64,000 nucleotides of DNA, from assembly GCA_032718475.1 (NCBI GenBank), contig JAUCBJ010005093.1:1-64000 (forward strand), written 5' to 3'. Positions 1 to 36,962 of the stretch are shown piece after piece. Position 1 is the first letter of the stretch. The number at the start of each line of letters is the position of its first letter. The notes under the pieces are model-generated. The model saw only the letters and a list, made by a program, of their open reading frames with translations, ran no database searches and was not told where the DNA came from. The translations under genes and the position numbers were made by a program. The stretch comes from Nemertoderma westbladi. Lineage: Eukaryota; Animalia; Xenacoelomorpha.

Positions 1-177
1 GGACCCGGAGAGACGGAAGAGAGGTCGGCGACGAGGACGTCGGGGTTTCTGATCGACTTCGACGGGCCTACAACGCGACCCGGAGACTATTAGAGGAGGC
101 CAGAGGAGGGGCGACGATAGACAAGGTAAAACTAAAGAGAAGGACTAGGTGAGTCGAATAGACACTTTTATTATCTA

Positions 178-3100
178 ATGCGCTTCGGGCAAAGAGGACT
201 GGCCGAGGAGAGAGCGAGAGGGGTTGCCGAGGAACTGTATGACTTGTGGCGGTATGGGGGTATGGAACCTAGCGTAGTGTACGTAGGGCCGTACTTAGTC
301 GATGCCCGGGGAGTAAAATTAGTGGGTTGGGAGAGACCTGAGGAGGACGAATCCGAGGTTAACCCCGAGGATTCGGCCTCGTCGGTCGGAGGAAGTTCCG
401 GGAGGCGGGGGAAAGTTAGTAGGACGGGGAGGCGGAGGGAATCCGTTACAACCGATAAGTCTGCTACATCCTCCGTGAAAGAAAGACGGGTGAGAGAGAT
501 AAATGCCGCGTACCGTCTCGATCTAATAGAGCAAGGTCAAAGGGAAGTAGGTAGACGGTTAGAGGAGGGGAGAGTGCTGCTAGAGAGGGAAATGGCGTTG
601 ATTAAGGAAACCGGAGAGAGGGCCGAAAGGGCCGCGAGAAGCCTTAGGGAGAGTGAGGAAGTAGGGAGGAAGGAACAAGAAGAGCGCGAGGCGAGAGAGA
701 AAAATGAGCGCGGAGAGCGTGAGGCGGAACGCAGGGAGCGTGAGGCGGAAAGTAGGGAACGTGAGGCGAAAGAGGAAAACGAGTGCAGAGAGCGCGAGGA
801 GAGAAAGGAAAACGAATACAGAGAGCGTGAGGCGAGACGAAGGGAGGGGGCTAGAAGAGAGTTGGAATTGGCCGAACGGAACGCACGGGAGTGTAAGGAG
901 AGAATGGCAAGGAAGGAGTGTGAGCAAAAGGAACTAGAGAAACGTCAAGGTCAGCTTACAGGGTACAAAGCTGTATATACGCGCGAGCGGGAACTGGCGC
1001 GAGTAGGGGCGTCTGAGAGTGGGGCTAGCTCGAGTATTTTCGAGGAGCCAGGGGCCGTGGATACATTTATTAATACCCCACTTACAGGGACCGCACAACA
1101 GACCCAAGACTGGTGTGACCGTACGGGCGGGGGGGGGGGGGGGGGGGGGGGGGTAATAATAATGCTATAGTAGACGTCGTTAATATTAATAGTACCGTAT
1201 GGGATAACTCTAACCAAACCTTTATTGCAGCAAATAATGCTTTACCCAGTAGCAGTAATTTAAATTTAAGTACAAATAATAATTTCAATTTGAACGTGCA
1301 AAATAATTCAAATAATTTAAATAATGATCCAAGTCCGAATTTACAAAATAATTTAAATGATTTTGTTTCAAACGAACAAATTAATTCCGTTTCCAATGTG
1401 GGTGCTATTAACGTGAACACGTCGGGCGTGTATGGCCGGGCAGACGGGGGCCTGGTAGGCCGTACAATTGGTAGGTCGGAGGTGGCGGGATTGAGCCAAC
1501 CCAGAGAGGGCCTGGTAGGCCACGTAGTTGGTAGGCAGGGAGCAGCTGGGTTGGATAGACCCGGTGGGGGCCTGGAAGGCCGCGTAGTTGATAGGCAGGG
1601 AGTGGCTGGGTTGGACAGACCCAGCGAGGGCCTGGTAGGCCACGTAGTTGGTAGGCTGGGAGTAGAGGGCCTGGTAGGCCACGCAATAGCAGAGGGAGAG
1701 GCGGGGGTGAATAGACCCGACCGCGGTAGGGTAGATGTGTCGACTAGAGAGGCGGGAATACTACACTGAAAGGAGAAGAAGAGAAGACAGTAGTAAAAGT
1801 ATCGCCGCGAACGATTGAAGAGAGAGGACGGATAGCGAGCCGTCGGTAGTCGAGATGAGAACGGAGAGTCAGTGGGGTCGGACTCCGGGAGATTGCCGTC
1901 GCCCCGGAGAGATGCGACCTGGCGAGGTGCATTACGCGCCGATGGAAGGGTACACGATGTACCGGTACGAAGACGAGAACAGTAGAGAGGGAGGTCGAAG
2001 AGAAACTTTCCGACGGAATGTACCTACCGATCGAGAATACGGTAGCCGTGGGGAGGATTATTCGAGAAGAATAAACTTCGATCCCGAGCAACACATGCAG
2101 ACAGTAGGACATACTGTAGGCCTTACTGCACATACCATAGGCCATACTGACAGAGGCAATGTAGGCGATAGGATAGCGCGGACAACGGGATTAAACCCGG
2201 AAGTCGCGGATTACATACCGGCGAGGAGGCCAGAAGCTGATAGGCCTATACTGGTACCAGTACAGCAGTATGACTACAGCATGCAGGGACATAACATATA
2301 CCCAGGGGAGGGGGGAATTATTGCGGATAGGTGTATGGGCCCCAACATATTAACATCAACCCCAGTACCAAACATACCGGTGGGGGGGGGGGACAGGGTG
2401 ACATTCCCCCATCACAATATCAACAATATACCCCGATAGGAGCGAGAACAACGAGACCCTTGGATGAAAATAGGTCGTGTGACACAGAGATATGGAGGGG
2501 GCCGCTACCCCCGATGACATACCCAAGTCAAAGAAGATCAAGAAATAGGACGGACGAACCGCACCAGACAGGAGAAACTATACAGCATCCATCGAACCCA
2601 TTGGAAGTGCAGGCGATGGGGATGGCCACGTTGATCGATGCGTTGAAAACGAGGATCGAGTTACCACCCGTGGAACCATTCAAATTCGATGGGAGTAGGC
2701 CGGAAGAATATCTACAGTTTCGGCGCATGTATAGAAACGAAATACTTACAAAAAACTTGACGCAGGCGGAGTGCCTAAAGTATCTGCAAGTATACACGGG
2801 AGGCCCAGCATATGACATCGTGAGGCAATATCAAGGAATATAGGGCGGCTTCACGACAGCATGGCGGGCACTGGATAGGGAATACGGGCACCCGGCCAAG
2901 ATCATCAGACAGACACTGAGAGGCATAACATCGGGTGGCCTATAGGATAATCCCGTTAGCATTAAGACATTCGCTAACAAGGTCGAAAAGGCGCTAATCG
3001 TGCTGAAGACGCTAGACGCGCCATACGAGCTCAACGCGTCCAATAACATCACCACGATAGCACAGGCACTACCTAACTGGCTGCGCAACAAGTGGAGGAA

Positions 3101-4214
3101 GATCGCTTTCTCCACTCGAGACAAGAAGGGTGCGGAACCGGGTTTAGAAGAAATGTCAAGCTTCTTAAACTACGAGGCCGAACTAATAACTGACCCAGTC
3201 TATAGCGAAGATAGCCTGGGAAAGGGACCGAAGACGGATTACCATAGACCGAAACCAGAGCACAATACATCAAACGCATTACCGAGGCTCAGCCAGTCAT
3301 TGCCATATGCAGCGACGCAGGGGACTGCAAGTCCACAGCTAGCCGAAGATAAGACAACACCATGGAACGGACAGGGGAACAATAACAACACGAATAAATA
3401 TAACCCCAGTACGTCCAGTAGGCCGAATCCAAACAATAAGAATAGTAGGGACTTTGGTACAAACGCAGCTGCGATACGCAATGCACTGTATAAAGAGGGC
3501 TACGACCCAAAGAGCAAATGCCAGCTACACGCAAATGCGCTTCATCAAACCATGAACTGCAGGTACTGGCAGGCGCTACCTAGGAAAGATCAGATAGATT
3601 ATGCGTTGAGCAACAAAATCTGCTCGCGATGTGTAATGAGTGGACATAGAGCAAGGGAGTGCAAGGAGAAGCCGGTAAAATTTGGTCAGAGGAGAGGCCA
3701 GACGATGGCGACGAGCACAGTAGGGGCGAAGAAGAGAGGAACGGTGTTACTTGGAGTAGTACCCGTGCGAGTGATTGGGGAAGGCAATCGATCAGTAACA
3801 ACACTAATGCTGGTTGATAGTGGAGCTGCCTTCACATTAGTCGAGGAAAGGGTGGCCGAAGAGATAGGATTGAGAACGAGGCCAAGCAGAATGGCGGTAA
3901 CAACCATCTCTAGCAAAGATGAGATCCTGGAGATAAGAACAGGACGGTGCGCAATTGCAGCAGTGGCACCGGGATGCGACTATGGGGCAACCATCGACCC
4001 CATCCAAGTGATAGAGTCAATTAATATCAATGCCATGCGGCCAACCAACATCGAGTTCGAGCAATATAAATTCCTGGACGACATTGACTTCTCAATCCCA
4101 GATGTGGACGTTAGGAAGGTATCCATCATAGTAGGAATGGACTGCCCAACGCCCACGAAAGAATGCAAACGGTCTTCGGCGAAGACAAGCAGTGTGACCC
4201 GGTGGCGATATTAA
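178..4214 (+). pseudogene. gag: BEL/Pao gag-protease, broken by stops and frameshifts
   Basis: Coiled-coil N-terminus, DUF1759-like FKFDGS/LKYLQVYTGGPA, knuckles CQLH..H..C and CSRC..GH..C, protease LVDSGA; in-frame TAG 2841-2843, frameshifts near G runs and ~4150. Confidence 0.85.
1430..1700 (+). repeat. 60-bp tandem repeat (~4.5 copies) in the gag region
   Basis: GGGCCTGGTAGGCCACGTAGTTGGTAGGC recurs at 60-nt spacing (1449, 1509, 1569, 1629). Confidence 0.9.
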
Positions 4215-7200
4215 CACCATTCGGGTGGACGCTGAGTGGTCCAATCAAGAGTAAGATACCATTTAGGATGTCGGAGACATCAGGATGCATGTTCGCGGGA
4301 ACAATGCAGGAAATGGGTGATGAGGGAGCAGAGGAGCAGCTCAAAAGACTGCTCAGGCAAGATTTCGAGGGACTAAAGGAGACCGGGGTCGGGACCTCGG
4401 TAGAAGACAAGCAGGCTTTACAAAGCGTGGAGGAATCGATGACATGCAATGAGGGGCGGTATACTATAGGAATGGTATGGAAACTACCGAAGATACCGCT
4501 GCCCGATAATAGAGGGATGGTACTCACGAGACTCCGCAAGCTGAAACAAACACTAAAACGGAGCCCCGAGAAGAATGAGTACATCCACAGAACGATTAAG
4601 AAGTAAGTCGAAAAAGGATGGGCCGTGGAGTTACCGGTCGACGAGCCGAACACAGACAGGACATATTACCTGCCACTCCACGTGGCTTTAGACCCAAAGA
4701 AAGGTAAACTACGGATGGTAGTCGACGCATTGGCAAAGACCGACGGAAAATGCTTAAACGACTACCTGTTAGAAGGCCCAAACATAAACAATTCGGGCAT
4801 AGAGGTGCTACTTAGATTTAGGAATGGGAAACACGCCTTCACGTGTGACATAGAAGGCATGTTCAACCAAGTCCGTGTAACGGAGGAAGATAGCGACAGT
4901 CAGCGCTTCTTATGGTATAACGGCGAGGAAGAACCGTCGATAATACCGGCATATAAGATGGTAGTACAGAACATGGGAGCCAAGTCGTCTTCATTTACGA
5001 CGACTATGGCATTCAGAGACACAGTGAAGGGGAAGGAAGATAGATACAGCACTAGGGCCGTCGATATGATTCGACGTGGCTTCTACGTAGACGACGGAAT
5101 GGAGTCTGGAAATACGGTTAAGGAGATGCTGGACACGGGGCGCAAGGTTCGTGACATCCTGAAAGGATCTGGCTTTAACCTGACCAAATTCCAATCCAGT
5201 TCGGAAGAATTTATCAAGGCGATAGAGGACAAGAGACCAAAATCGACCATGGATAATCCCACGACAGCCAAAGGGCAGGACATGGCGAATAAGAAAACAG
5301 AATCTCAACAGAAGGCATTGGGAGTCGTGTGGAACAGAGAGACAGACGAACTGAAGTATCAGCTGAGCCAGGAGGGTGCAGACATCCACACGAAGAGGGG
5401 CTATGTATCGTATATAGCAAGGATATACGATCCCCTAGGCCTAGCATCCCCATTATTAGTTACAGGGAAACAGATACTCAAGAGAGTATACAAATTGAAG
5501 GATGAGTGGGACGTAGAGGTACCAGAGGAAATCAAGAAACAATGGAGTAAGTGGACAGGAGACTTGGAGAAGATGGGAACATACAACATGCCACGAGTGT
5601 ATTTCCCGGATGGGAACATGACGAACCTGGACCTACACATGTTCTCCGATGCGTCGTTGGAGGCGTACGGAGCGGCACTCTACTTAGTACAACGAGAGGG
5701 GGCTCATAAGCCCAGACTAGCCTTTAGCAAAGCAAAGTCAACGCCGCCAGATTCAGCATCAGTTCCCAAATTAGAATTGACAGCTGCGAGACTAGGAGTT
5801 AGAGCCACAGCCTACCTAGTGGATACTATTCCCAACATAGTGGAGACACACTACTGGACGGACTCCATGGTAGTACTTGGTTGGCTACATAACGAAAGGA
5901 CGAGATACCCAATATTCGTCGCAAATAGAGTGGACGAAATAAGGGCGAGCACAGAACTGGAAAGGTGGCACTACTGCCCAACGGACGAGAACCCAGCGGA
6001 CTTGTTGTCGAGGGGCGTGGTACGCCACACTTTCTTGAAGAAGGAAGTATTGTGGCAACATGGGCCACAATTTCTGAGCGATAAGGAGGCCTGGCCGCCA
6101 ATTAGAAAGGTGGACCCGGGCTCAGAAGTAGTGTCAGAAGGAGAAGAGGGAGATTCAGAGGGAGAAGAGATATACTCCCAGATGGTGAGGGAGATTAGGG
6201 ATGTGCAACCAAAACGAGAACTGTGCGATAACCCGACGGATAAACTCCTCAGCTACAGTTCTAGTTGGTATAAGACCAAGAAACTAGTGGCGTACTGGAG
6301 AGCCTTCGGGAATTTCCTCGCGGGAGTTGGCAAGGACAAGAAGATCATGACAACCATAGATCTGGAAGGAGCGGCTAAGGCAATCATCCGCTATGAACAA
6401 CGGAAGAACTATAGCGACGAGGTAGAACGCGTCGGTAACCAACAACACCTCCGACAGGACAGCGAGCTGATCGCGCTGTCGCCACAACTTAATGACGATG
6501 GGATTCTAGTAATGAACTCTAGGGTGGGATACAACAACAGCATAATCGTACCACCGAAACCCATCATCATTCCAACAGGATCGCCAATAGTTCACCAGAT
6601 TATCTGGGACTCCCATAAATCGATATTGCACGGGGGCACCAACCGAACCCTCACCGAGATAAGGAGGACCTTTTGGGTCAAACAGTTGAGGAAGAAGGTA
6701 AAAGCGGTGGTGGGGCAGTGCCAGACCTGCCGGCGAGCGAAGAAGGAGCGAGCCATACAAGAAATGGCGCCACTACCAGCGAGTAGAGTAAGACAGCACG
6801 ACCCGCCATTTACGCATTGCGGTGTGGACATGTTCGGGCCGATAAAGATAAAGGTGATGCGGCACACGGAGAAACGCTACGGTATCATCTTCGTATGCAA
6901 CAACACGCGGGCGATAGGGATAGAACTCGCCCAAGATGCAACCGCATCAGCATTCATTAATGCCTTAGAAAGATTTAGGGACCGCAAAGGTGGGACGATC
7001 GCAGTGATATACAGCGACAACGGCACCAACTTTGTGGGCGCAGAGAATGAGATGGCAGAGGCCTTGGACATCTTGGAAGGAGAAGAAGTCAGGGCAGCCA
7101 TGAGGTGACGACAAGTAAAGTGGGAGAGAAGGACGCCGTATGCACCACATACACTAGGATGCGTCGAGAGACTGGTGGGCAGTTCTAAGCGTCTAATGAC

Positions 7201-7723
7201 GAAGCTAATGAACACCCACATGGTCACTGAGGACGTCTTACGGACAGTGCTTGCGAAGTGCGAGGGGATCATTAATAGCAGACCGCTATACCCGGAGAAT
7301 GATGACCCTGAGTCATTAGACGTGCTGACGCCTAGCCATTTCCTGATGGAAAGGCCAGCGACCATCGATATGCGGGGTGTAGACCCAGATGACATACACT
7401 CCCGCCAAAGTTGGAAAGTAGCCAAAGCAATAAGCGCAGAGTATTGGAGGAGGTGGGTCGAGGAATACCTACCCACACTCCATAAAAGGAGTAAGTGGAG
7501 GAAGCCAAATATGGAGTTAAGAGAGGGAGATCTCGTAATCGTTACGGATGATACTATCATCAACAACCAGTGGCGGTTAGCGAGAGTTGTAGGCACTTAC
7601 TCCGACGAGGACGGAAGAGTCCGATCGGTAGAAGTGCGGATAGATGGTAAGATAGGTGCGAAGGACAGAAAAACCTACAGGAGAGCTGTGGGAAAATGCT
7701 GTCTGCTAGAAGGGGCACCTTAG
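4163..7723 (+). pseudogene. pol: BEL/Pao reverse transcriptase-RNase H-integrase
   Basis: One frame with in-frame stops at 4604-4606 (TAA) and 7106-7108 (TGA); YYLPLH, LRMVVD, CDIEGMF, FYVDDG, FSDAS, HHCC zinc finger and DDE integrase motifs. Confidence 0.93.
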
Positions 7724-7884
7724 TGGAGTTTGTCATGAGTTTAGTCGTCCAAGCTTTGGACTGAGGGGGGTGGGATTGAGGGCGAGACACCCTTCCCACA
7801 CATAAAAACAGATAAAAATAGAAAATAAAAATAAAATAATAGTACATAGTAGGTACGCAGTTAGTAGGCAAAAGTTAGTCAGTA

Positions 7885-8390
7885 AGAAGGTACGTAGTAC
7901 CTAGAGTTAGTTAGTTAGTTAGGAGGTACGTAGTACCGTTAGTTAGAGAGGAGTTAGAGGGTACGTAGTACCGTTAGTTAGAGAGTTAGAGGGTACGTAG
8001 TACCGTTAGTTAGAGAGGAGTTAGAGGGTATGTAGTACCGTTAGTTAGAGAGTTAGAGGGTCCGTAGTACCACTAGTTAGAGAGTTAGAGGGTACGTAGT
8101 ACCGCTAGTTAGAGAGTTAGAGGGTACGTAGTACCGTTAGTTAGAGAGTTAGAGGGTACGTAGTACCGTTAGTTAGAGAGTTAGAGGGTACGTAGTACCG
8201 CTAGTTAGAGAGTTAGAGGGTACATAGTACCGCTAGTTAGAGAGTTAGAGGGTACGTAGTACTGCTAGTTAGAGAGTTAGAGGGTACGGAGTACCGCTAG
8301 TTAGAGAAGAGTTAGAGGGTACGTAGTACCATTAGTTAGTTAGAACTAGAGTTAGAGGGTACGTAGTACCGTTAGTTAGAGAGAGAGAGT
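7885..8390 (+). repeat. 32-35 bp tandem array (~15 copies), one hairpin per unit
   Basis: Unit GAGAGTTAGAGGGTACGTAGTACCG(T/C)TAGTTA; each copy contains GGTAC-GTA-GTACC. Confidence 0.95.
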
Positions 8391-8866
8391 AAGAGGTAAA
8401 AGGGTATATAAGATATAGATATTAGTTAGCAGTTAGTAACGAGAGGGGGGCATATGAGTACAGCTGGGTAAATCGTGTGGCAACACGACGCATACTGCTG
8501 TACTGCACAGGCCCACAGAGTAGGCCAGAATGTGGATTAAAGAATAGAACAATCCATAGGCAATAGTAAGTAGTAGGACAGTAGAATTAAAATTAAAATT
8601 ACAAATAAATAGAATAGGGCTGAAAGTTACAAATAATGGCAACACAAGGAAAGTTATTCTAGAACATAATAAAAGTAACGGACAGAAATTGTAAATTACG
8701 CTCATTTACTAGCTTCAAAATTAATTAGTAATAATTTAGGTTAAAAGGCGCAGTTAAGTAAGAAATAGGCCATTATCGGACCGTACAGAACATCCTAGAT
8801 ACATCACTCATCTGTATTGCGCCTTGGTAAGGCACCACCTTGCAGGTGAGCGAGTGAGTGTTCGGA

Positions 8867-11379
8867 ATGGCGGGCAAATTGATCAGAAAGAGAAAGGCGG
8901 AGTCAGGAGGAAAGGAGATGCTGGTGGATTTCACCGAGAGGCATCCGGAAGAGAAGACGAGAGGATACTACGAGAGGTTGGAAAGGGATCACTTCCGGGA
9001 GATGCACGAACAGCGGCTGGTCGGGACCTACGGGACGCCGTCGCTGGACAACGCGATCTTCCAACACTTCCACTACGTGGTGAAAGGGGACGAGGCGAAG
9101 TTCGGGATTCCGAAGTACCCGAGGGAATCATCGAGGAAGGACTGGAAGAGATTCATAGAGTCCGTCAACAGAGGAGGATATATGATCCTAGACGACGAGG
9201 GAACCGTGGAAGACGAGGCGGGTTCGAGACAAGGATCGGCGGGGTCGGCCAGGACCATACTCCTACATTTGGCCGCGCCAAATGGGGACATCTTCTTATT
9301 CGATCTAGGAACGTATGGGAAGAAGGACGGGCCGAAATTAAACCGGTTACCGAAAGCGGTACAAGTCTTGGTAAGGGAGAAGTCGACGACGAAAGTAGGA
9401 TCGGCGATTCGCGAGGATGCGGAGAGGATCATCGGTCCGGACGCCACCAACCTCCTGGATATGCAGAAGGTCTTTATGGCTATGACGGCACCGGATGGGT
9501 TGGGGGTAGTCGAAAACCCAGGCCAATGGCAATGGGCCAATTATTGGGGCTTGTGAGCCAGAAACCGATGGATTGGGGGAAGTTCAGGGAAGAATACGGA
9601 CCAGAACTAGCGAACTCGCTAAAGTGGGGAGCGAGACCGGGAAAGCAAGAGGTATATCAATTCCGCAGAGAAGCGATAAAGGTATATCAGAAGCGATATA
9701 TCCTGCAGGAAGATTGGATGATGATAAGTTTGCTTAACTTATTTATGACCGTGGTCATCGAGAGGGAACCAGGGGCATTTCTGTTATCGGGATCACCCCT
9801 AAGCTACAGGAGAGCCTTTAAAATGGCCTTCGACGGTCTGGTAGACCACCCGGGGCTGAAGGGCGAGTCAGTGTACTACAATAGCCGGCATCTGGTAGAC
9901 GGGGAGACAGATACGCCGTATCAGAGATGGGAGCAGCTAGAAACGGATAGACGAGAAGCAAAGCGACTGGAAGAAGTCGCTAGACGGGAGAGGATAGAAG
10001 CAGAGGAGAGGGAAGAGGAGGCCAGGACACAGAGTTATGGCTTCGAGGAACAGGCAGGCTTAGACGAACTTCATTGGACTTCGTCAGGGAGTTCGGGGGA
10101 GTCTCTAGGGCGAGAACTGGGATGGACGGTGGGATCGCCGAAACAGTTGATGTCGGGGTTGCAAGCAATGCCCATACCAGCAGGCGCCGAAGGCGACCAA
10201 CCGCCAAGGAAGTTAAGGGAGCTAGAGGGATGGAGAGCTACGGGCGAGAGCCAAGGCGGGAAGGGACATAGTGGATCCATCGGGATACCGGGGTTGGAGC
10301 CACTGCCAGAGGAGGAGGAGGACGGCGACGAGTTCGGAGAGATGCCGCCCATCGAGAGGATAGGCCACTCGGACACGGACTGGGTTGGCGGAAGGGTGGT
10401 GACGGCCAGTGGGGCGAGGGCCTTCTGGAACAGATCCGGCAAGCGGACCTGGGTGCACGAGGAGCCGGCGATGGATTTCGCGGGGAGCACTATCAGGTTG
10501 GGCGAGCAACCGGGGACGGCACCACGGGTAGTATTCGGGGAGACAATGCCCGAGAGGGGCGGAGAGATCGACGTAGACAGGGACACCAACGTGGAGAAAT
10601 TCGCCTACCAGCGACTCCACAGACCGCGGAGATCGCTTGGGACGAGAGACGACGTGGGGCGGGAGACATTGGTACTCGGCTGCGACTACTGTGGGAGACA
10701 GACCCACCAGGAAAGGAGCTGCCTGTACCGGTTCCAAAAGGGAACCTCTTGTCTCTACTGCCGAGAACCGAGCCACAGGATGGGGGCGTGTCCACGACTG
10801 CATAACCGATGTCCAAAGTGCCACTTTCGGGGACACTACGGACGCCAGTGCGACTGGATGGACGACGAAGAAAAGTTCAGGAGATTCGAGGAGTGGGCCG
10901 ACGTCGGGGCCATGACGCGCCAGCGCATGAAGGCCCAGGAGTTCAAGTGGGGTTTCTTCCTTATCAATCAGGAGGCTCACATGGAAATCATAAAGCGGAG
11001 GCTACCGTTTACCTATCAAGAGGTAGCGACGGCGGCGTCGTATGCCGGAGTAATGAACACACAAAGATATTTGGACAGGTGGACGCCACAGAACCGAGGG
11101 GAGTTTAGGGATTTCTTGGCGGAGCACGTACCGCAAGCAATGAAGATGATCCTATGGGACGCCACCAGAGGGAGACAACAGGGCCACTCTGAGGGGCCAC
11201 CGGCGAAGCGATATCGGGCACTAATAACACCAGCGCCCAAGGAGCCAACAACCGGAATCAGCAAGGAGGTGGCGGCGAAGGTCCGAAAGCAGAAAGCGGA
11301 TCCCAGAGGAGCGGTGGTAACCAAGAAACGACCCAGGGAAGAGGACGCCAGGGGGAACTATCCCCAGAGGAACAGATAG
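8867..11379 (+). pseudogene. Accessory ORF of element A: DEDDy-type 3'-5' exonuclease plus three CCHC zinc knuckles (one frameshift ~9500-9525)
   Basis: ORFs 8858-9556 and 8824-11379 joined: ExoI YMILDDEG, LLHLAAPNGDIFLFDL, ExoII LPKAVQVLVREKSTTKVGSAIREDA, ExoIII-like KRYILQED; CDYC..H..C, CLYC..H..C, CPKC..H..C. Confidence 0.78.
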
Positions 11380-11654
11380 GTTCCGGGGGCCGAGGGAGAG
11401 AAACTGGGACTTGGACGTGGTACACCTGGAAGGCGCCGCGTGGGACGTACGAACTATTAAGTACAAATCTAATTAATGCAAATAATCATATAAGTGCAAT
11501 TTGTATGTACGTACGTAGCAATTAGTAATCTACAAATATACGTTAGGAGTAAGTACTATAGTCATACAACCTTTCTCAATTAGCTACTGGGACTGGGGGG
11601 ATAACTGACTATGGCACTATGGACGAGACACCAGACAATTTCACACTTCTTGAG

Positions 11655-12640
11655 TGCGACGGCACAAGAGGGGGGGGGGGAGATTCGTCAGAAGGGATGA
11701 GGCAATCGAAGTGGGGTTGAGGAACGGAGCAATAGTGCGAAGTGCGGAGAGAGTGCGGACGCAATTCTAGTGTGTGGGGGGGGGAGAATAAGAGGCTGAG
11801 TGAGGGACGAGGAGGTCCGAGGGTATGAGAGATAGGGTGAGAGTGGAGAAGAGATAGGGCAAAAGTGTTGGGGAAACAAAAGTCGCGTGAGAGGTGAGCG
11901 CGATCGGCCCGACATGAGACGCCAGGCATACAGGGTAGCGTTATCATACCCAGAGGGAGCGGCCTGGAAAGCCGGCTCCGAGAGAAAGGAATTCCACCCC
12001 ACACCCGATACTAGATCGGGATCCAGCGGGATTGTAGCGCACTTAAGGTGGATGCTATCTTCTCACCGGGAAGATAGCATGGGGGGGAGTGTTAGCTTAT
12101 TCAATCCCGCTAACACCCCATAAAGTTAAGCCGATAAGCAATATTGGGAGCCATGAGATTGGGTAATCAACCAACTCGTGCCACCCCAACAAAATGGGAA
12201 GGAAACACACAATGAGGGTCAGGGGCCAAACCCCTAACCCAGAGAGAACAGGTGGAGTGAATGGAAACACTCCAAAGGGCGCCAACAAGGGTATCAACCA
12301 ATCAGAGGGGAGAAAGGCATCGATTAGGTAGAGTAACAAGGCCAACCGTGCAATATAGCCACTTTGCAGTAATCATATCAGTTCAGTTATCTCAGTGTAA
12401 TATTGGTGCTAGTTTAGGTTAGTTAGTTTAGCTAGGGAAGGACCGGGACTTTAATTACCATATCCCGCCTTCTGTATACGACAACATTATCCGTACACCT
12501 ATATCTATATACCCTATATCTATATCAGTTATTATATACAACGAACGACACGGATTCCCTTTTTTACCTTTCATACACACGGCGGGGACGAGTGAATTAA
12601 ACAACCGGATAAATCGGGATCCTTCCTGGATCCCGTCACA
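11655..12640 (+). repeat. Probable 3' LTR of element A (left boundary uncertain)
   Basis: Non-coding, follows the last ORF and G-rich tracts, ends in TCACA; partner LTR not in window. Confidence 0.5.
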
Positions 12641-12649
12641 TGTTTAATG

Positions 12650-14071: not shown

Positions 14072-14253
14072 CTTTTCCCCTTATATTATAAATATTTTAT
14101 GATTATTTTTAAAATTTTGATCTTTTTAATTATGAAAAAAAAAAAAAATTTTAAATAATCGAAAATTGTAGTAGTATTTGTATATACAGTATATCGGATT
14201 TGTTTGTTGTGTATTGAGGTAATTATTTTCAATTTTTCTTTAAAATTTGAAAA

Positions 14254-14703: not shown

Positions 14704-14926
14704 ATTACATTGATTAAGTCTATACAACATCAACAACAATCGGAAATAGCGCCTATAGTTGGGTGACAGTTGCGACACGTGTTTATTAAATATACAGTAC
14801 TGCTAATATTGTAGTTGCATCAATTATTGTTATTATATACATAGTAATGGTGATGATGGTTCTTTATGTTATATTATATTGTATTGTAATAATAATATTG
14901 TATAATGTATTGTATAATAATAATAA

Positions 14927-22567: not shown

Positions 22568-23613
22568 TGTTAAACAAACTACCCCGGCCTAACCAATAAA
22601 GACACAAAACTGCTCTATTTATTAGACAGGGCAATCAGGAGCGTATTATTGCTAATGTAAGGGCTGCTAAATACAAAACCGCTACTCATCGTTAGATGGC
22701 GCTAACCTGCCGTCCGCTAATATATTTAACTAATTTTCTACGGCTCCTGCTAATTTCTTGTTCCTTTCTCTACCGATTACTCGATAGAGAGCTAATTGTT
22801 CGAATATATGAGCCACGCGGGAATAACCAAAACAATAACCCAAATCGGCTCCCTAAGCTGACTTAAAACAAGTATGAGAGACTTTACACTCAGAGTATAT
22901 TCTTACGGCCTAATCTAGCTGCTAAAACGCGTTAACAACAACGTCCTTTCTAATCTAATCTAATCGCATCTAATCGCATCTAATCGCTTCCCTAACAGAA
23001 TGTGTGAATGTGAGAATATTTAAATAATCAAAAATTGTTACAGTGTTTATTTCGGGACTCAAACTTACCTGCGGCTGGCTTTAGACCAGCAATTTACTGA
23101 TGCGCGCTATATACTGTATACTACGATGTGAATTATTGTCCGCTAATTCAAAAAACCGCCCAGCGTGAATAGTGTACGGTACTCTAAATTATTACCTTAA
23201 CTACCCTCCGCTATGGTGCGTACAAATTCTTAATTTTACTAAATAATTACAGTCACAAATATGTAACGGCGTACTAATTACTAAGTATTCCAGAGTGCGT
23301 AATTCTAATTTATTACTCAACGGGTCGCACTAGCAACAGCCTAAAATACCGTATTATTTTCGACCTAATCAGTAATTAATTACAGTAAACTAAGATATAG
23401 AAATCAATCAAAGGGAAAAGAGCGCCTATCCAAGCATTCGTGATTTTTTAGGCACACTTTAGTAACATACCAATCAGCGTAACAATATATAGTTTATACT
23501 TACCAATTTTAGTTCTTAACGCACAATTCACAATCAACAGTCAGATAGCAATTCGCAACGTAAAGCACGCAGGTCTCTCCCGGCTACATCTAGGCTTCCT
23601 AACTAACCCAATT
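22568..23613 (-). repeat. 3' LTR of element B (matched part; true LTR extends further right)
   Basis: Starts TGTTAAACAAACTACCCC on +; direct repeat of 39262-40357 with roughly 25-30 substitutions counted by eye. Confidence 0.95.
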
Positions 23614-25266: not shown

Positions 25267-28200
25267 TTACCGACCCGCTCCTGGGTTCTTCGGGCTCGCT
25301 CCCCTCTTTCGCCCCCTTCCCAGATACACCAATCGTCCTCCAGTCGATTCTGTTGACGTCGTCCGCGAGGCGTCACTCCTCGGAACCGGCGACGATGATT
25401 CCCGGCTCGTGCTTCTCCCTCGGCCTTGTCCCAATTGTCGTGCTCCTGTGGTCACTTCCGCCAACTCTTCCTTTTGCAATTGCACGCGCGCCTTCTCCGA
25501 CGCACCCTGCGCCTTGCGCTGCAATCGCTGTGCCTCTATAATAGAATGGTAGTGATCGTCCTTGACTTGACGCTTGTCTTGGACCTCTCCTCCTGGTTCC
25601 TTCCGTGAGCCTTGAGCTCCAACGGTCGTCACTGTGGGCGCTGCGGTTCGCTGTTCTTCGATTCTCTGAGCGTCAACGACACCACTGGTACGTGAGTCAA
25701 TAGGAATTCGTTGCGGTATTGAATAGCCGCCATCCTCCAATCTCCTCGCGCGCGCACCACCTTTCTAGTTTCCGAAAATAGACCTTTCGTGATACGGTCG
25801 CAAATAGCAACAAAGTTCCAAGTGTACTTATTATCCATATTTAGTTGTCTGAAGTATTCCCGAACAACTATGACTCCAGTGTTCTGTGGAAGGTCTTGAG
25901 CGGTCAATATGAGCTCCTGATATTGTGGCAAAGACTGTAGATACGGCTCGTACGCAACATGTGATGGGTCTACCGCCCAAAATCCATATCCCGCCTTAAA
26001 TGGTAACCAACGCATCTGCGCTTGGATGTGGTCAGCCACACTCTCCCACTTATCTAGCATCTCCCGAAGTAGGTTAGCGCTATGGTTTTGGAAGGAATCG
26101 TCTTGCAGTTGGCATCTTGCGCTACGATGTCCCTTTACTCCACAATATCCACATTGAGAAATGAAAACGGTGCACGTATGAAATGAATGGTCGGTCTCGT
26201 TGCACCAATGGCAGACCTTATGCGCCGCCTCCACTACCGCGTCGCACGATTTTTGATTGTGCCTTGTGCTGCCGCACAACTTGCACCTACGCGCTTGTGG
26301 AAACCAGGCCCTCTCGTATATGAGGTCTCCAATCGGTTTCGCACTTCCTTCTTTCCCAATGTCTAATACGATGTCGTCCTCTCCGGTTAAAGGTTGTCGA
26401 TCCGGAACGAAGTAAACATCCTCGCCCTTGTCCTCTATCTCCAATATTTCCTCCCGCGTTCGTTTCGGATATGTCTTCTCCACCGGAAGATCTACTCCAA
26501 ACACCTCTACTAACGTCTCCGGCCAACCCTCTCTAACAGGTCTATCAGCCTCCGAGTGGAAGGGAGTACCAAACCCGCGGGTTTGATTCCCGAACCACTT
26601 CTCCAAAGCTTCTGGCGTCGGATACTCCATCGACGGTCCGTCTCCCAAATCTCCGATATTCTGTCGATATATCCCTTCGAATATCGCTAATCCTCTCCTC
26701 ACCATCGACGTATTCTCTAGCGATTGGTTGAAGAACGGGGTTAAGAAACGCTTCATCACGTCGGATTGGATTCCCACTTTCGAGCGAACGTATTGATTTC
26801 CTCCGAACACCAATGGATGACGCTTCAAAACTCGCGCAACGATATCCGCTAATAAACAAGTTACCATGTTCGACTCAAGCACCAAATAATATTGTAGTGA
26901 CGCACGGGGTGGCGCGCATATGTTCCAATACACTAACGCTTGCCGCTTGAAGTGGGATTTGAACTCCGCTCCCGGTGGCGTGTTATATTCACCATACGCC
27001 TCCTCGTATTTCTTCTGCGTTTTCAACTTGAAGTCCCAATTATACAATAAATGTGCTATGAAGCCCACACCAGTCTTGGCAGAGTTGGGATACTCCCTAT
27101 AAATTCCAATGTCTTGTACCCATAGCAACAATTGTTTGGTGTCGACAAACGGTCTTGACAATCTATCTTCCAAATCAGTTATGGCGTTAAAGTCACTCTC
27201 CAAATCGCTCTGGACTCCCGATCCCACCTTGACGTAATCTTGGTTGAGAATAGCCTCTCTAACCTTCTTGGGTAACATCCTGGTGTCGATACGCTCTGCT
27301 CCGTGCATACCTCCTCGCCTGCATAGTGCATACCTCCAAAATCTGTTCCCTAGGATCCTTCCCTTTCCGATATTGTGTCGTGATTATGGGCTCCGGTCTC
27401 TCTCTATCCGCTCTTACGCGCATAAACACATGAGTCACACCATCGGCCGTGCGAATTTGAATGCACTTACTAGTCAAGCATTCCTGATGAGACCCTCCTT
27501 CATTGTCGTAGAACATCACTCTCCAATCCTGCAGTGATTCCTCCGTTTTCCTCCACTGACGCTGAATCTCGTCGGATGGGGTCCACATGCGCTCGATAGC
27601 CTTGTGGTCGTCATATCGGGTGTAAGATCCCTTTCTCCTCAGCCACGCCGGATCTACCTCCTCGTCATCTGGGAATGTAGCCACCGCGACCCATACCTTG
27701 ATGTACTTATCTAACCATCCGAATAACTTACTCTCCTTTCCCGGAGCTCCAATCTTATCCAATGTGTCGTAGTCTGTGATCTGCATTGGGACATCACGCA
27801 AGAACTTCGCGCATAAAACTTCCCGTAGACAGTCGACGTTCCAATGATCCGACATCCTCACCATCGGCAAGAATCTAATCGCTTCTCGCGACTCCGGGTG
27901 ATCTACCAATATCGCAGGTTAGTTGCCGTCGGAATAATACACCGGTCGGGGTTGAGATACGGCCTGTGGAACAAATCCGGTCACTCTCCTCGTCTCCTCT
28001 TGATGTCTATCCGCGGTCTTATTATATTCCGCTACCCGCGCTTCGAATAATTGATTCGCCTTCGCCGCTCGCTCCTCCTGCCGCAACGCATCTATGTCGT
28101 CCTGATGCTCAGGCGTGAGAGTTTTCGCTTGATGGGGCGAAGTAAACGTAGACCAGGGACTCAAGAGCTCCAAACCCGCGGGTTTGGTACCTGAGTCCCG

Positions 28201-28986
28201 TGCCGCTTCGCACCGCGCCTCTAGGTAGGCTCGGTATAGCGAAATGGCCGCTGCCGTCTCTATCAAACTAGGTGTCGAACAGGGTTTAATCTCCGTATAC
28301 GGATCTAATGTCGTAACAGTCGGCGTAATGGGTCTTGGAGGTCGCTTGCCGCTGAAGTCGATACTGATCATCGGGTTGCTCATTGGGTAACCTCCCTCGT
28401 TGTATCTAAGGAATTGGTGAGCTTGACATCGCGTTAATATCGGTTCAGGATGTTGCTCGTCCAGTCGGTCGGGAATCGCCACGTCTTGTTTATTCATGCA
28501 TTCACCACATTTGTAGAACAACTTGTATACACTGAAGACCTTTGACGTCTCTTGATCCTCGCCTCGAGTCCTCCGATACAGATGCATTCCATCGAATTGA
28601 TCTCGGACTGCAGGTAAAGGCTCTTCATGTCGTAAATACATGTTCATATGGTACAGCCGCGCAATCTCCTCGTCCGGGTCTGCGCTAATGTTGCATACGT
28701 CTAACGCGAAATCGTAGGGATACCGAGTGCGATACTCCTTCCGCAAAACTTCCATGCGGTCCCCCAACGCTCTCATTCTTTCCCTCCTTAATTCTTTATC
28801 GTAAGCGGGTTTATACTTCCCATTTAGCTCCATTACCGACCTTCCATGATAGTAAACATTCGAATCCTTACATCCTGGTCGGGCAAATGGCAGCTCCGCC
28901 TCCTCTCTGGCAGTAAATCCTCTCCGCGGTTGGGCTCTAATTCCCTTCTCCATTACAATCCGCATATATACATATATATATTCCAA
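25267..28986 (-). pseudogene. Accessory ORF of element B: unknown N-terminal domain, DEDDy-type exonuclease, three CCHC knuckles, basic tail
   Basis: 28986-27919 continues in frame past TAA into 27909-27259 (MFYDNEG), frameshifts to 27308-25629 (LPKKVREAILNQDYVKVGSGVQSDL; YYLVLES; CKLC, CHWC, CGYC knuckles), probable tail in 25740-25267. Confidence 0.78.
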
Positions 28987-29720
28987 TAAGTTCCGTTACG
29001 TAACTAATTACACTGTGGGTGAATCAGTTAGATGTCGCTGAAGGACAGACCTCCTGAGCCCCCCCCCCCCCCCCCCCCCCCCCCACCGCCTTCCAGCAGT
29101 TCAGGTTCGACTCTCTAGATCCCGTCTCATTCCTAACTATCCTCTAACCTATTCCCATGCATAGCGCAAAAACTTTTGAGATAAACTGGCCGTGACCCTG
29201 ACCAACTCACTTTTTGATGCCCAAACTACTCCCATTACTTGTACTAAACTACAGTAGTTAGAAAGGACAATAGTCTCAATGCTCGACTATACCAAACCCA
29301 CAGGTTTGATAATCGAACATCACACTTCACTGCAAACTACTGAGTGCGGTCCGTGTATGCCCTGGTGCTACTAACCTTTAGCACCTTAGTTGTACTGTAG
29401 GCACCAATCTGTGGAAGTTGCTAAACTCAATTCACACTCCTACGTAATATAGCCGTCACCATGGTTTCTAAATGCTATTTTCCAGGCTTCATGACTTTTC
29501 AAATTACTGTTTATCTATAGACGAATTCTAAATCGCATCTATACACAGCATCTGGAATTGTCTTGGGTTCACTTCTAATTTTTAAATTTTTTAATTTTCC
29601 AAAAATTTTGAAATAAAATTTTGTTTTGATACCCACCAGGCAAATCACCACAAACCCGCTCCTATGCATTTCCTTGTATTTGCATACGAGGAATGCATAC
29701 GAAGTGAGTTGCGTCCAACA

Positions 29721-32700
29721 CTAATTTTTATTTGAGGCAGGAGACAAATTATAATCTCCTGTCTCGATGCGTGTCTCTTCTAATAACACAATATCTTGGA
29801 CCGGTCGGTCCAAGGTGTGTAAACCATTAGTTTTACACTTCTTTGGGTGCGGACACTTGCACCTAATTTTCACAGTGACTGTGCGCACTATGTTTTGCAC
29901 GTCTGGGTGTATGTGCAAGATAACTCCCGTCTCCCAGTACTTTCTCTTGACAATTGGTTCGGTTATCAATACGTAATCTCCTCTTTGGAGGCTCCGAACC
30001 GTTTTGTACCACTTTGTTCTGGTAGATATGGTGGGAAGATAGTATTCCCGCCAATATTCCCAGAATGTGTACGCCACAAATTGTGTCACTTTCCAGCTCT
30101 TACGACTATATAGGTCGGCACTAATGGGTTCTGATGCCGGCACAAGAAATGCTGGACTCTGCATTAGCAAATGATTCGGCGTTAATGCAACACCGTCTGG
30201 CAACATAGCTATCGGCCTCGAGTTCAGGGTATGCTCGATTTCGATGAAAGCTGTGACCAGTTCGTCGTCGGTAAGTTGTTTGTTTACAGGCAATGTCTTA
30301 GCAATGGCCTGCTTTATGGAACGAACCAAACGCTCCCAACTTCCTCCTCTCCAAGGACTTTCTGGAGTATTGAATCTCCACTCTATTCTTTGCGGCAAAA
30401 GTGCTGCAGAAATTTCTTTATTCTGCGCTGCTCTGTGAGCCGCGTTCAACTCGCTATTCCCTCCGACAAAGTTTGTACCCTTATCAGAGTAGAACACCTT
30501 TACTAGTCCTCTCCTGGCCATAAATCTCTTTAAGGCCAGGAGCAGAGATTTGGTCGACATGTCTGCCACACGCTCGATATGTATGGCTCTACTAGCCATG
30601 CATGTCAGTAGCAGGCCCCATCGCTTGTGGGTCAGCCGTCCACTCTTTGCCTCAATCGGACCAAAACAATCCACCCCTGTATTCGTAAAGGGTGGGTCAT
30701 ATGCCTGCACTCTCGCTTCCGGGAGTTCAGCCATCTCCTGTTCCAATACTCTGGCGTTCACCCTCTTGCAAACCAGACAGGCGTCGTACATAGTGCCTAC
30801 TGCCCTGCTTGGCTGCAATAGAATGAATCGCTGTCTCGCTGCCGACAAACAGTGTAACTTTCCCGCGTGATGCAACCTCTTGTGTATATCCCATAGAATC
30901 GCTCTTTGCAATTCTATTGGGTGACTAGGGATTATCACTGGGAACCTGAACTGTGAGTTTATGTCGACAGTCTGGATTCTCGATCTATGACAAATCAAAC
31001 CCTTATGGATTAATGGACTCCATTTTCTAAGGGGTTTATAGAGAACTGGTCGTTGAGCCGATAATAGATGGAATTCCTTTGGGAAGGCACACATTTGATA
31101 ATGTTTCAAATGCTTTAATTCCGCTTGATCAATGTCATCCTCTGTCAGAGGTTGTTTCAATTTCTGAATTCGCTCACTATTAGTGCTCATTTGTTCTCCC
31201 AAATGTTTCGAATGTTTTAAACAAAGGTACGAAATGTATCGGCTTAACCACGCAGTTCTTTTACAAATTGTCAGCCAAGAGGCAGACGAATTTAGTAATT
31301 TGTCATAAATACTACATGGCTCTAACGCCAGCGACGGTTGTCCGCTAACTAATGGAAGTTTCGAATCCAAACCCACAGGTTTGGAAACCAAAGGCTCCAT
31401 TGTGTCGGTCATTTTCTGTCCGTCACTTACCAACTGTGACTCTGGTTTAGTCTGTAAGGGTGGTTTTACGTCATAACTTACCCTTCCTGACCTAGTAGTC
31501 ACGTAAGTCTGTAGGTCTGACAGGTCTCCAGGCCGCTCCAATGGCTCTTCAGGCCGCTCCAATGACTCTTCAGGCCGCTCCAATGACTTGAGTTTGGCTT
31601 TAGACTTTGACTTAGAGACTTTCTCCACTTTGACTTCTGCATCTTCTGGCATCGGATTGGTCACTATCTTTAGTCGCTCTGGCCAATGTTCCTGTGTCCT
31701 CGTTAGAAAATCAGGTCCATGCAACCAAAACTCCTGGGACTCTTCCTGACAGAATTCCGCCGGCATTGCACCTCTCGAAGTTATGTCGGCCGGGTTTAAC
31801 ACTCCCGGACAATGTCTCCATTGTTCCTTCGTCGAAAAGTCGACGATCTGAGCGCGTCTGTTGGCCACAAATGTCTTTAGTGCAATATTGTCGGCCGCAA
31901 TGTATACTAACACTAAGGATGCGTCCGTCCAATAAAATAAGGTCAATGTCGTGTCTAACTCCTCTGTTATCTGCTTACTTACCTCGACTGAAACTACTGC
32001 CGCCTGTAACTCTGCACGAGGGACAGTCATGTATTTGACCGGCATTGTCTTTGATCTAGAAGTCACAAAGGCCGTCTCAAATTTATCCTGACTTACCTCT
32101 CGGCGAAGGTAGGCTACCATACCAAAGCCGGTGTCACTTGCGTCACTGAATAGGTGGAGTTCGAGATCAGCTGGGAATACCAGCTGATTCGGAAAGTAGG
32201 AACGGGGTACATCTATGTTTTTCAATAGATGCAACTCGGCTTCCCACTCTCTCCACTGCTTTGCATGTATAGGAGATATTGGTTCGTCCCACTCTAGGTC
32301 GGACAACCAAATTTTCCTCATGCACGCTCGTGCCTGTAATATTACCGGACTGATAAAGTTCATCGGGTCAAATAGTCTACTTAATGTCGATAAGCAAATT
32401 CTCTTTGTCAAAACTTTGTCTGGACTACTGGGCTCAAATCTAACTCTTACCTGGAACTTGTCCGTGTTCGGGTTCCAAGCGAGTCCCAGTACTCGCGCCA
32501 TGGGGATGGGTTCTACCCCCAATTCAATGTCTCCGCTCCCGCGATCTTTCACCGGGAACGACTCTAATAGGGCCTCCGAGTTCGTAGTGAACTTGGTCAG
32601 AGGAAATCCCCCTGTAGCCAAGCACTCCTGCAGGCCGTGAGCCACTTCTATGGCTTGTTCCGCTGTGTCCTTGGACACCAATCCGTCGTCCATGTAGAAG

Positions 32701-35700
32701 TTTCTCAAGATGGACTCGATAACCTCTACTGGATACTTACCAATCTGGGCTGTTGCCGTTTTCTTTAGAACAAACAGCGTGCCATTTGGACTATCGCGGG
32801 CACCAAATATCCTAACGTACATTTGGTATGTAACCACTGGGCCGGATAAGTCTTCATTCTCAAACCAGAGAAATCGAAGGCTATCCTGGTCTGCCTTACA
32901 GGCTCTTACCTGGTGGAACATCGCCTCGATGTCACAAGTAAATGCGAATCGCCGCTGTCTAAAACGCAACAGTATTCCTATCAAATAATTGTTCAGGTTG
33001 GGTCCGTCCATCAACTCTGAATTCAGGGACATACCTCTGTAGACTGCTGCGCAGTCGTTGACTACTCGGACTTTGTCAGGTTTGTCAGGGTGAGTCACAT
33101 AGTGGTGTGGGAGGTAATAAGTCTGGTCTGTCACTAAGTCAGGGTCCTCTACCTTCCCAGCAAATCCCTTGGCGAAATAGTTGTTGATCTGGGCGCAATA
33201 CTTCTCCCTAATGTCCGGATTCTTCAACAACCGAGCCCTTACTCCGTTCAATCTTTTCAAGGCTAAGCTGTAGTTGTTCTCCAACTTAGGAGGTTGTCGA
33301 CGCCACAACATTCCAACTTCAAAATGTCCAGTCGGTAGCAGACGTATGGTATCTTCCATCATCTCCAGCGACCGTTTCTCATCAGTAGACATGGCTAGGT
33401 CATATCCACCGGGTTCCATTGCGTCCCTATCCAGCCATTCGACGGTTCTGGCTCCTGTCTCGAGGTCCTGGCGTATCAATTCCTTCTGTAGCTCCTCCTC
33501 ACTGTATTGGAAAATGTCTAGGTCTCGATATTTAGCCACTTGACCCTCCACTATGTCGGTATAAGTCAAAACGTTACTCAGATAGGTAGCGTGGGCCGCT
33601 GAACCAGACCCACGGGTCTGATAACAGTAGTCCTCGGGTTCACTATCTGTCCGGTCATTGTGAAGTGGTTCCGACAACCTAACATTATCGGGAATCAACT
33701 CCTCGTCCGACTCGCTAACGTCACTATAATGGTCAATACAGGTTCTCCTAAACTCGTCTATGTCTGGTGGTTCTACTAACGGTGGTTGAGTTATAGGCTG
33801 TAATCCGTCGTATCTATCCATTGGCTTGTCGCCACCTGTAAACTCATAAGACATGGGTACTCGTGTATACCAACCTAATATAGTCCTATGGGCATGTGGT
33901 CCATTGACATGCGGCTCAGCTGGTCTCGTTTCCCATATTTGGTGTGCGATCAGCTGTTCTGCACCAATCAACATAGAAACATTCCTATAACCTACCTGGT
34001 GTCTCGGTACTCTGAGTTTGTCAAAATACTCCTGTGCTATGGGACTCATCGGTGGCACCTTACCTAACTGCCTGCCGAACCCCTTCATAGCTAGACACTT
34101 GAATCCATCTAATGGCAAAGCTTTCCGTTCTTGTCGAGTGTGTTGGTCTCTCGGAAGTAGGGAATCTAGTTCTACAGAAATTCTGTGTCCCTTGAGGTCA
34201 CGTACCCCGTGCATAGACTTTAACTCTATTTGTATTTCCTCTGCATCCTGGAAGCTAGAAACGGCTCTCGCCACTTCCTCGTCTATATATGATAATGTGG
34301 ACGCAGTGTCCAACATCACATATATTCTTTTTGATCCCTTATCTCCAGTAAGTTTCACCGGAATCACGCTAAATATTTCCGACGTGGCCGATGATAAATA
34401 CGTCCGCGCGCTGGTCGATGAACTATCCGCAGTGAAACCTTGGCAGGTCACCTCTCTTGCGCTCGATTCGCCATCCTCGTCCGACGAACCTGGTTGGTAA
34501 CCATCGTCTTGAATGCCGGTATACGTATTTCTTCTTATCGATACGGGTTCTTCGCTCTCCTTCCTTTGAGGATTTCGCTGTAAGTAACGGTCCGTTGGGG
34601 TGTGGAAATCCGCATGTAGCAACTTGTGATGTAGTCTGCCGCATTCCATGCATCCGTCCTTGCTGTTCGGGCACTGCCGCCGTACATGACCTGGCGCAAG
34701 ACATGCCCAACAGGTGTCCAATGTCCGCACTTGAAATCTTCTCTGTTCCGAATTTAATTCTTTGAACCGTCTGCAACTATCCAACTTATGATCGTCAGAT
34801 CTTACCTCCTTTAGTAAGCAGAATTGGCAACCTACAAATCCATCCGGCAACTCCTGTTGCTTTAACCTAGGTCTATCTAACCGCTCACCTGACCATACTC
34901 GCGAGTCTGATCTAAAGGCTGGGGTACTCGAATTATATCTGTCTACTGAGTTAAATGTCACAGTGGTCCTGTCATCGTCAAAACTTACCATAGACTTACC
35001 GGTAACAGGTTTAGACTCCCACATATTCTCCTCTGAGAAGTTTGATTTCATCTCTGCTACTGCGTCTGTGGCTATCATGTCATGGATATGTTGAAGTGTC
35101 AACACCTTACTTTGACCCTCCAACTTATTCTCTAATTTGCGCCATTTCTGACTGTAACGCATGTTTAAACGTCTTATTACGCTCTTCAAAACTTCGGCGT
35201 GATCACCAAGATAAGGTAGATTCACCATCATCAAGATGTCTAATGCGTTCGAAATAGCATTCGCTAAGTTCAACAGCTCTAACGGAGTTGTAATCCTTCC
35301 GCCCTTACCCAAGTCTTCTACTATCGACTGTGCCATCTTGGTTTTATTCCCATAGATGTCGCTAAGCGTCTTCATTGCTAACTCAAACGCCCTTTCATTG
35401 CCGACGAAGTTGTCAGCAATGACTCTAGGTTCTCGATGGAGCATTTGAAGCAAATAGTTGAACTTCTCGTTGGGAGTAAAGGTGCTGTTGGTCAGCTGTT
35501 CGTCGACATAGGTTTTGAACGTCCTCCAATGCTTATGGTTGCCCATAAACTTCTGGGGTTGTTGCGTCGGCAGTCCTTGCCTAGCAGCAAACTTACCTAT
35601 GTCTCTAAGTGTTGCGTCGTTCCGGGTTAACAAATGGTTTAGTTCTGCAGGGTTATTAAGTCTGGTCCTTTCCCGGGGATTAAAACTTACCTGCTCCGCG

Positions 35701-36941: not shown

Positions 36942-36962
36942 CTTCGCGTCTAACTTACATGT

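Follow-up and report, generated by a model that had tools for sequence, protein, structure and literature searches.

What could an animal retrotransposon gain from a gene that resembles an exonuclease followed by zinc knuckles and that lies where env would be expected? The question was raised by a 64,000-nucleotide stretch of Nemertoderma westbladi DNA (assembly GCA_032718475.1, contig JAUCBJ010005093.1, positions 1 to 64,000), hereafter the window. A BEL/Pao element at its start, element A, carries a third open reading frame (ORF3) of ~836 codons (8867-11376) between pol and the 3' long terminal repeat (LTR). We found that this ORF3 is a single gene under purifying selection with a lesion in copy A, and that a second BEL/Pao element of the window, element B, carries a homolog. 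The encoded protein probably contains a DnaQ/DEDDy fold, which precedes three zinc knuckles.

An extra gene in two BEL/Pao elements

A preliminary description, made from the letters alone, had placed a gene of ~840 amino acids (aa) with one frameshift between pol and the 3' LTR of element A. This was borne out. The upstream pol was of the BEL/Pao type (Pfam: Peptidase_A17, E 1.6e-40; DUF5641, E 2e-25), and all named motifs were located where the description had put them, in frame +2 before the break and in frame +1 after it (Table 1). The 5' piece began with a basic N-terminus and continued through the putative ExoI, a second strand, the putative ExoII and LLDMQ. In the 3' piece, the putative ExoIII was followed by an acidic low-complexity linker, the knuckles, a conserved post-knuckle region and a basic tail.

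Contigs of public runs were used to examine other copies. On 8400-12700 lay 10,526 contigs of run X1 and 5,957 of run X2. Summed contig depth, which is not a copy number, differed little between ORF3 and its flanks and was greatest over the LTR. The element A family was abundant and diverse. Differences were scored by codon position at 58 distinct sites inside ORF3. The best-supported rows only were used (the best 40 of 765 and the best 40 of 100), and the result is a subset count, not a ratio of nonsynonymous to synonymous rates. On the 5' side of the break, 11 of 17 listed differences were third-position in frame +2 (p 0.008); on the 3' side, 30 of 41 were third-position in frame +1 (p 2e-7). 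For ORF3 in total, 41/58 listed differences were third-position, against an expected ~33% (p 7e-9), and 40/58 were synonymous. Contigs of other copies diverged from copy A at the break. The third-position bias, its switch of frame and the contigs leaving there therefore indicated one protein-coding gene, under purifying selection and broken in copy A. The single frameshift of the preliminary description was thus supported, and the neutral decay that it had named as contrary evidence was not seen in family A.

The break looked private to copy A or its subfamily. Programmed frameshifting was set aside, since other copies differ from copy A there. Many X1 and X2 contigs also had loose ends at 8986-8992, so other copies differ in length within the N-terminal part of ORF3. 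Run X6, whose RNA nature is only a guess, gave 17 low-depth contigs on parts of ORF3 and the LTR, and these were not used as evidence of expression.

Element B lies on the minus strand. Its two LTRs were 97.5% identical and enclosed an ORF3 homolog, which agreed with the earlier assignment of the gene to BEL/Pao elements. Both pols had the order protease, reverse transcriptase (RT), RNase H, integrase, with Pao-type RNase H (PF05380) and DUF5641, and were 34% identical to each other. Between the 3' pieces of the two ORF3s, BLASTP aligned a stretch that takes in the knuckles and the sequence beyond them (E 7e-10) and a second stretch at ExoIII (E 0.008). The 5' pieces matched at E 0.018 only, and 52 of 182 aligned residues of the nuclease regions were common. 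ORF3 therefore belongs to the lineage of these BEL elements and did not enter them by a chance insertion.

No clear target-site duplication was seen at the ends of element B. Conservation also extended over ~90 residues past the knuckles (W, FK.G.GF and others; 10852-11130 in A and 25800-26100 in B), an unnamed domain. The 349-aa ORF that lies in frame upstream of ORF3 in element B contained a Cys/His cluster; it had no match in Pfam, PHROG or NCBIfam and no counterpart in element A.

The two elements were compared with 80 metagenomic BEL loci. A tree of the RTs of A, B and 66 of these loci placed A and B as sisters with support 0.94 on long branches, and this grouping may be long-branch attraction. 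The integrase C-terminus was present in 57 loci, and 11 of them had at least 1.5 kb downstream of it. None of this small sample of 11 matched ORF3, and for this reason ORF3 was considered accessory rather than core. Two loci (L021 and L038) had co-oriented frames of ~378 aa past pol, which were unrelated to ORF3.

Word-based protein searches with the 5' piece of A (among longer proteins), the 3' piece of A and the 3' piece of B found no homolog. Scans of metagenome, viral and PDB sequences likewise gave no ORF3 homolog, and these blanks do not confine the gene to its host. A phmmer search of 1.84 billion representatives with the 5' piece of A returned a single 2805-aa match via 14 short stretches, which was rejected as a repeat artefact.

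A probable DnaQ-like domain and three knuckles

Judged by its sequence, ORF3 appeared to resemble the WRN/EXD2-type DEDDy nucleases most. A subfamily hidden Markov model (HMM) was built from 11 of 15 bacterial PF01612 regions, with WRN, Nibbler/Mut-7 and EXD2 as best PDB matches; one wrong-frame region and one of another type were left out, and a further two were assigned to an RNase D-type set. With filters off, the 5' piece of A scored 9.1 bits, against a maximum of 3.8 among 681 decoy frames and of 5.6 among 1,000 shuffles. The 3' piece of B scored 4.1 bits at the same profile positions (best shuffle of its first 200 residues, 3.0). In the hhalign control, 0 of 200 shuffles reached A, B or the pair. 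An ordered-block test gave z 6.8 for the 5' piece of A and z 5.3 for the 3' piece of B. The best ExoIII site in the 612-aa 3' piece of A was YQKRYILQEDW, with a block score of 19.9 and the next at 6.6. Neither HMM nor hhalign comparison detected a signal between ORF3 and profiles of the RNase D or PolA type.

Individual residues were also aligned. MAFFT put D109/E111 and D184 on the invariant ExoI and ExoII columns, at 18-28% identity to bacterial members. D184 was aligned as the ExoII Asp by HMMER, hhalign and MAFFT, and the Asp of B by HMMER. The putative ExoI in B read D-N-E at the place matching that of A. The likeness to the WRN/EXD2/Nibbler (Mut-7) group comprised the KVG..I.xD block of ExoII, the helix preceding it and an h-h-D-h-Q strand.

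Structure prediction was performed with and without an alignment. Without one, AlphaFold gave a predicted local distance difference test score (pLDDT) of 36.8, with a helix at 90-102, strands at 105-109, 129-136 and 142-150 and helices at 177-189 and 196-204. This helix-strand-strand-strand-helix order is compatible with DnaQ, with the segments at the expected residues. Gelsolin-like and other weak fold matches of this model were treated as noise. With the bacterial alignment, pLDDT was 64.4, and the model matched TbRND (top Foldseek match, E 1.3e-4, 20% identity), EXD2 (best VIA-align match, Z 8.2, root-mean-square deviation 4.4, 111 aligned), Egalitarian, Nibbler and EXD1.

Several observations weighed against an exonuclease. 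ORF3 proteins matched no exonuclease family in Pfam, PHROG or NCBIfam. The PF01612 profile gave nothing at E 0.1 or at E 10; the HMMER filters drop weak matches. The hhalign probabilities were low, at 43% for A (E 2.5e-4, one comparison), 5.5% for B and 29% for the pair. The block test misplaced ExoI in A, gave z 0.5 for the 5' piece of B and did not pick ExoIII in B. As hhalign left ExoI unaligned too, two of three alignment methods did not recover it. In place of the YxxxD of ExoIII, the Tyr is kept and the Asp is Glu, in A and, by alignment to A, in B. The poor alignment-free model matched no DnaQ protein in the fold search, and the guided model is circular, because a DnaQ alignment imposes the fold, so it indicated compatibility only. 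The linker from nuclease to knuckles is ~300 aa in A versus 28 in TbRND. ORF3 also differed from the WRN/EXD2 group in lying below Pfam detection, in an ExoI without the G-x-D-x-E context, in YxxxE, in its inserts and in the fusion to knuckles.

Taken together, the DnaQ/DEDDy fold was moderately supported and considered highly probable, with a sequence that lies outside strict DEDDy membership at ExoIII. The Glu there is not a lesion of copy A, because the listed family difference in its codon (9711) was silent; the listed difference in the ExoII Asp codon (9418) was silent as well. The preliminary description had regarded a match of ExoI-III to DEDDy nucleases as established. The closeness to the WRN/EXD2 type was supported, and so was the ExoII Asp. 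The match itself could not be called established, given the missing Pfam and NCBIfam matches, the hhalign figure, the weak ExoI and the Glu of ExoIII. The AlphaFold and fold-search check that it had proposed did not return a DnaQ fold from the alignment-free model.

Three CX2CX4HX4C zinc knuckles were present in A and three in B. The nearest solved sequences were LIN-28 (E 0.001) and TbRND (E 0.012), with retroviral nucleocapsids also among them. The Cys residues in the 3' piece of A are solely the nine of the knuckles. A nested gag was set aside as the origin of ORF3, because the gag knuckles of the BEL elements in the window are differently spaced in pattern and ORF3 is not followed by a second pol. 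From the sequence, the linker appeared acidic and both ends appeared basic and similar to nuclear localisation signals (NLS).

Nematodes provide examples of BEL/Pao elements with env. Like ORF3, env of BEL/Pao elements lies between pol and the 3' LTR (PMC3118150). However, no membrane-spanning segment was found in the ORF3 protein (maximum 19-residue hydropathy 1.07-1.47), so by its sequence it is not env-like.

Layout of the elements and other features of the window

Table 1. Positions of the features of elements A and B within the window.
Feature	Position	Strand	Details
Element A gag/protease region	136..4606	+	Several frames, from the ORF list; Asp_protease_2 E 1.2e-5; CCHC at 3621
Element A pol (RT, RNase H, integrase)	4607..7723	+	Single stop 7106-7108; Peptidase_A17, Integrase_H2C2, rve, DUF5641
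Tandem array between pol and ORF3 of A	7873..8383	+	32 bp, 15.3 copies
Possible branch point and splice acceptor 5' of the ORF3 ATG	8803..8846	+	AG 8844-8845; inferred from sequence
ORF3 of A, 5' piece	8867..9556	+	Frame +2; ATG 8867, stop 9556, ORF 8858-9556
Putative ExoI of A (D109/E111)	9185-9202	+	ILDDEG 9185
Strand 2 of A	9260-9286	+	LLHLAAPNG 9260
Putative ExoII of A (D184)	9392-9421	+	KVGSAIREDA 9392
LLDMQ of A	9452-9466	+	LLDM 9452
Zone of frame break, copy A	9522..9557	+	Depth dip, loose contig ends, third-position frame switch
ORF3 of A, 3' piece	9556..11379	+	Frame +1; ORF 8758-11379
Putative ExoIII of A (YxxxE)	9697-9714	+	YILQED 9697
Three CX2CX4HX4C knuckles of A	10681..10851	+	Starts 10681, 10750, 10810
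Element A 3' LTR	11655..12640	+	Start uncertain (11655-11685); ends ...CA at 12640
Element B, whole	22568-40354	-	Two LTRs and BEL/Pao gag-pol
Element B 3' LTR	22568..23610	-	1034/1061 aligned bases same as 5' LTR
Element B basic ORF	25267..25764	-	Probably ORF3 continued past a further break (inferred); basic tail like that of A
Element B ORF3, 3' piece	25629..27383	-	KVGSGVQSD, FVDTK, YYLVLES; knuckles 26285, 26213, 26153
Element B ORF3, 5' piece	27259..27918	-	FYDNEG (putative ExoI)
Element B 349-aa ORF	27919..28995	-	Separate gene or N-terminal extension
Element B gag-pol	29721..37727	-	2413-aa open frame and upstream piece; Peptidase_A17 E 5.5e-39, DUF1759, DUF5641
Element B 5' LTR	39262..40354	-	

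Of the two LTRs of element A, only the 3' one lies inside the window; the 5' end, 5' LTR and primer site of the element lie beyond it. At the end of the LTR-like segment, seven contigs of run X5 ran on into unlike flanks, and contig depth rose within the segment over ~11856-12431. Element B had no tRNA-type primer site. The first 9 bases past its 5' LTR were complementary to LTR positions 43-51 (39253-39261 and 40304-40312, minus strand), for which the chance is ~4%.

Other mobile elements were also present. Polinton/Maverick-like genes occupied 14251-22166, with a RING protein (14251-14703), an A32-like ATPase (14927-15610), an rve integrase (16219-17064) and further ORFs at 19842 and 21309; this label was read from the gene set. 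A non-LTR element at 48142-52040, presumably of the CR1/L2-like pattern, had an open endonuclease-RT ORF of 978 aa and a Cys-rich ORF1. A third BEL/Pao element (57375-61898) kept gag-protease with most of pol deleted, and no ORF3 homolog was found for it in the window. A 165-aa frame at 44611-45108 on the minus strand had no Pfam match, and we take it to resemble the nuclease region at the C-terminus of certain non-LTR elements.

Possible role of ORF3

Where animal LTR elements have an accessory gene, it is mostly env, and bdelloid rotifers were the one described enzymatic case that we found. The rotifer Juno and Vesta are retrovirus-like LTR lineages with dUTPase, which we take to be gypsy-type, whereas A and B are BEL/Pao. 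DEDDy ORF3s with a DEED motif, whose activity was not demonstrated, were described from Juno/Vesta LTR and Athena/Terminon elements (PMC5408684) and reported again in PMC5718144, PMC6338049 and PMC6431247; the precedent named in the preliminary description was right. The rotifer ORF3 shares with that of A and B the position downstream of pol in the place of env, a DnaQ-like DEDDy domain and the lack of a membrane segment. Compared by description, its DEED differs from the motif of A and B, which aligns as D-E-D-E. In addition, where A and B have three knuckles, the available text of PMC5408684 reports no CCHC array, and a Cys-His-Cys motif for just two families. Selection was seen at the codon level for ORF3 of A, whereas the rotifer case is without shown activity or selection.

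The fusion itself has a cellular precedent, which the preliminary description did not name. In the kinetoplastid enzyme TbRND (RNase D of Trypanosoma brucei; PDB 7c42/7c45), a DEDD exonuclease is followed by a CCHC array. This array binds single-stranded RNA and greatly enhances the trimming activity of the DEDD domain (PMC7797062). TbRND is cellular, with four knuckles after a 28-aa linker. ORF3 belongs to a mobile element and differs in its three knuckles, its long acidic linker and the additional regions at both termini. The common architecture is probably convergent. The BEL/Pao host and the knuckle fusion appear to be new, and the enzymatic ORF3 of an LTR element is a known kind. The word exonuclease is absent from the main text of the BEL/Pao survey PMC3118150, whose supplements with element sequences could include such genes, and the available part of PMC3985635 does not mention an exonuclease ORF. 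We found no report of a BEL/Pao exonuclease ORF3 or of a retroelement exonuclease-knuckle fusion in the literature covered, with Repbase and GyDB annotations and most subscription papers outside it; absence from print is not proven.

Nibbler has a role in a small-RNA pathway. Mut-7/Nibbler and EXD1, which are small-RNA pathway proteins (PMC5408684), are among the nearest cellular relatives. Our leading reading, tentative and at slightly less than an even chance, is that ORF3 interferes with host silencing RNAs. ORF3 would be made from a spliced subgenomic RNA, for which 8845 is a candidate acceptor, and the protein would enter the nucleus through its basic motifs. By analogy to TbRND, its three knuckles would grip single-stranded RNA and the WRN/EXD2-type 3'-5' exonuclease domain would trim the 3' end. 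Small silencing RNAs or their precursors may be the target, and their trimming would blunt host small-RNA silencing. Catalysis with Glu as the fourth ligand seemed somewhat probable. What speaks against the leading reading, by our reasoning, is that a suppressor acting in trans is a shared good, which selection would maintain less readily than a protein acting in cis. The fullest version, in which a BEL/Pao lineage has carried its own small-RNA-destroying D-E-D-E nuclease with three knuckles since before the 34%-pol split and owes its abundance to it, was considered rather doubtful.

The same domain could instead be a dead or weak nuclease that acts as a knuckle RNA adaptor and moves, exports, packages or shields the element RNA. 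The Glu of ExoIII in both elements, the degenerate ExoI, the NLS-like ends and the matches of the guided model to Egalitarian and EXD1 fit such a role, and a cis-acting role easily explains purifying selection. Egalitarian and EXD1 likewise are RNA-binding proteins of several domains, one of them with the DnaQ fold, and have links to transposon RNA. They are host-encoded and non-catalytic, with LOTUS-like domains, whereas ORF3 has knuckles and acidic residues at all four positions. Pseudo-nucleases usually lose the acidic catalytic positions. However, two elements with pols 34% identical kept D, E, D, Y and E, and we regard the adaptor as unlikely, even though Egalitarian can do without its catalytic residues and binds the localisation signal of the I-factor (PMC13186709). 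An active RNA exonuclease might also process the 3' end or the RT primer of the element's own RNA, as was suggested for the rotifer ORF3s (PMC5408684). Cis action would again fit selection, and element B lacks a tRNA-type primer site and has the 9-nt complement. That complement has its ~4% chance, however, and the sampled BEL loci are without ORF3, so priming does not generally depend on it; own-RNA processing was considered quite improbable.

Action on DNA, as RT proofreading or as trimming of cDNA ends before integration, was considered very unlikely. The closest profile includes DNA nucleases, and 3'-end processing has been proposed for the DEDDy domain of Dada DNA transposons (PMC3706591). 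However, ORF3 is a separate gene unfused to pol, the PolA proofreading profile gave no signal, and the RTs of A and B are on long branches with diverse family copies. Among the functions first proposed (counter-defence, proofreading, primer or cDNA-end trimming), RT proofreading was the least likely. Sub-threshold scores, the lack of library matches and the uninformative alignment-free fold could also mean that ORF3 encodes a knuckle protein whose N-terminal domain is folded differently. Such a chance resemblance was judged highly improbable, as two diverged sequences matched the same profile positions above shuffles and in order, and the ExoIII site fell at the predicted place. ORF3 could finally be a captured host gene or nested element useless to the retrotransposon, for both copies are broken and variation of the rotifer env/GDSL ORF3s looked neutral (PMC5408684). 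This was largely refuted and extremely unlikely: ORF3 showed third-position bias, occupied the same position and orientation in two distantly related elements, was flanked by no repeats and had the contig depth of the neighbouring internal region. In the decayed copy A, moreover, gag-pol has at least 7 breaks and ORF3 has 1.

These results indicated that ORF3 is old, common to two distant families and selected in the abundant one. If host silencing RNAs are indeed its target, it would be an enzymatic suppressor of PIWI-interacting RNA or small interfering RNA silencing encoded by an animal retrotransposon. If the nuclease is dead, an element-encoded Egalitarian-like RNA adaptor would matter too. 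Concrete biochemical predictions follow from the change of the fourth ligand and from the fusion to knuckles as in TbRND, and ORF3 is a good system in which to ask whether animal retrotransposons encode active counter-defences against small RNAs.

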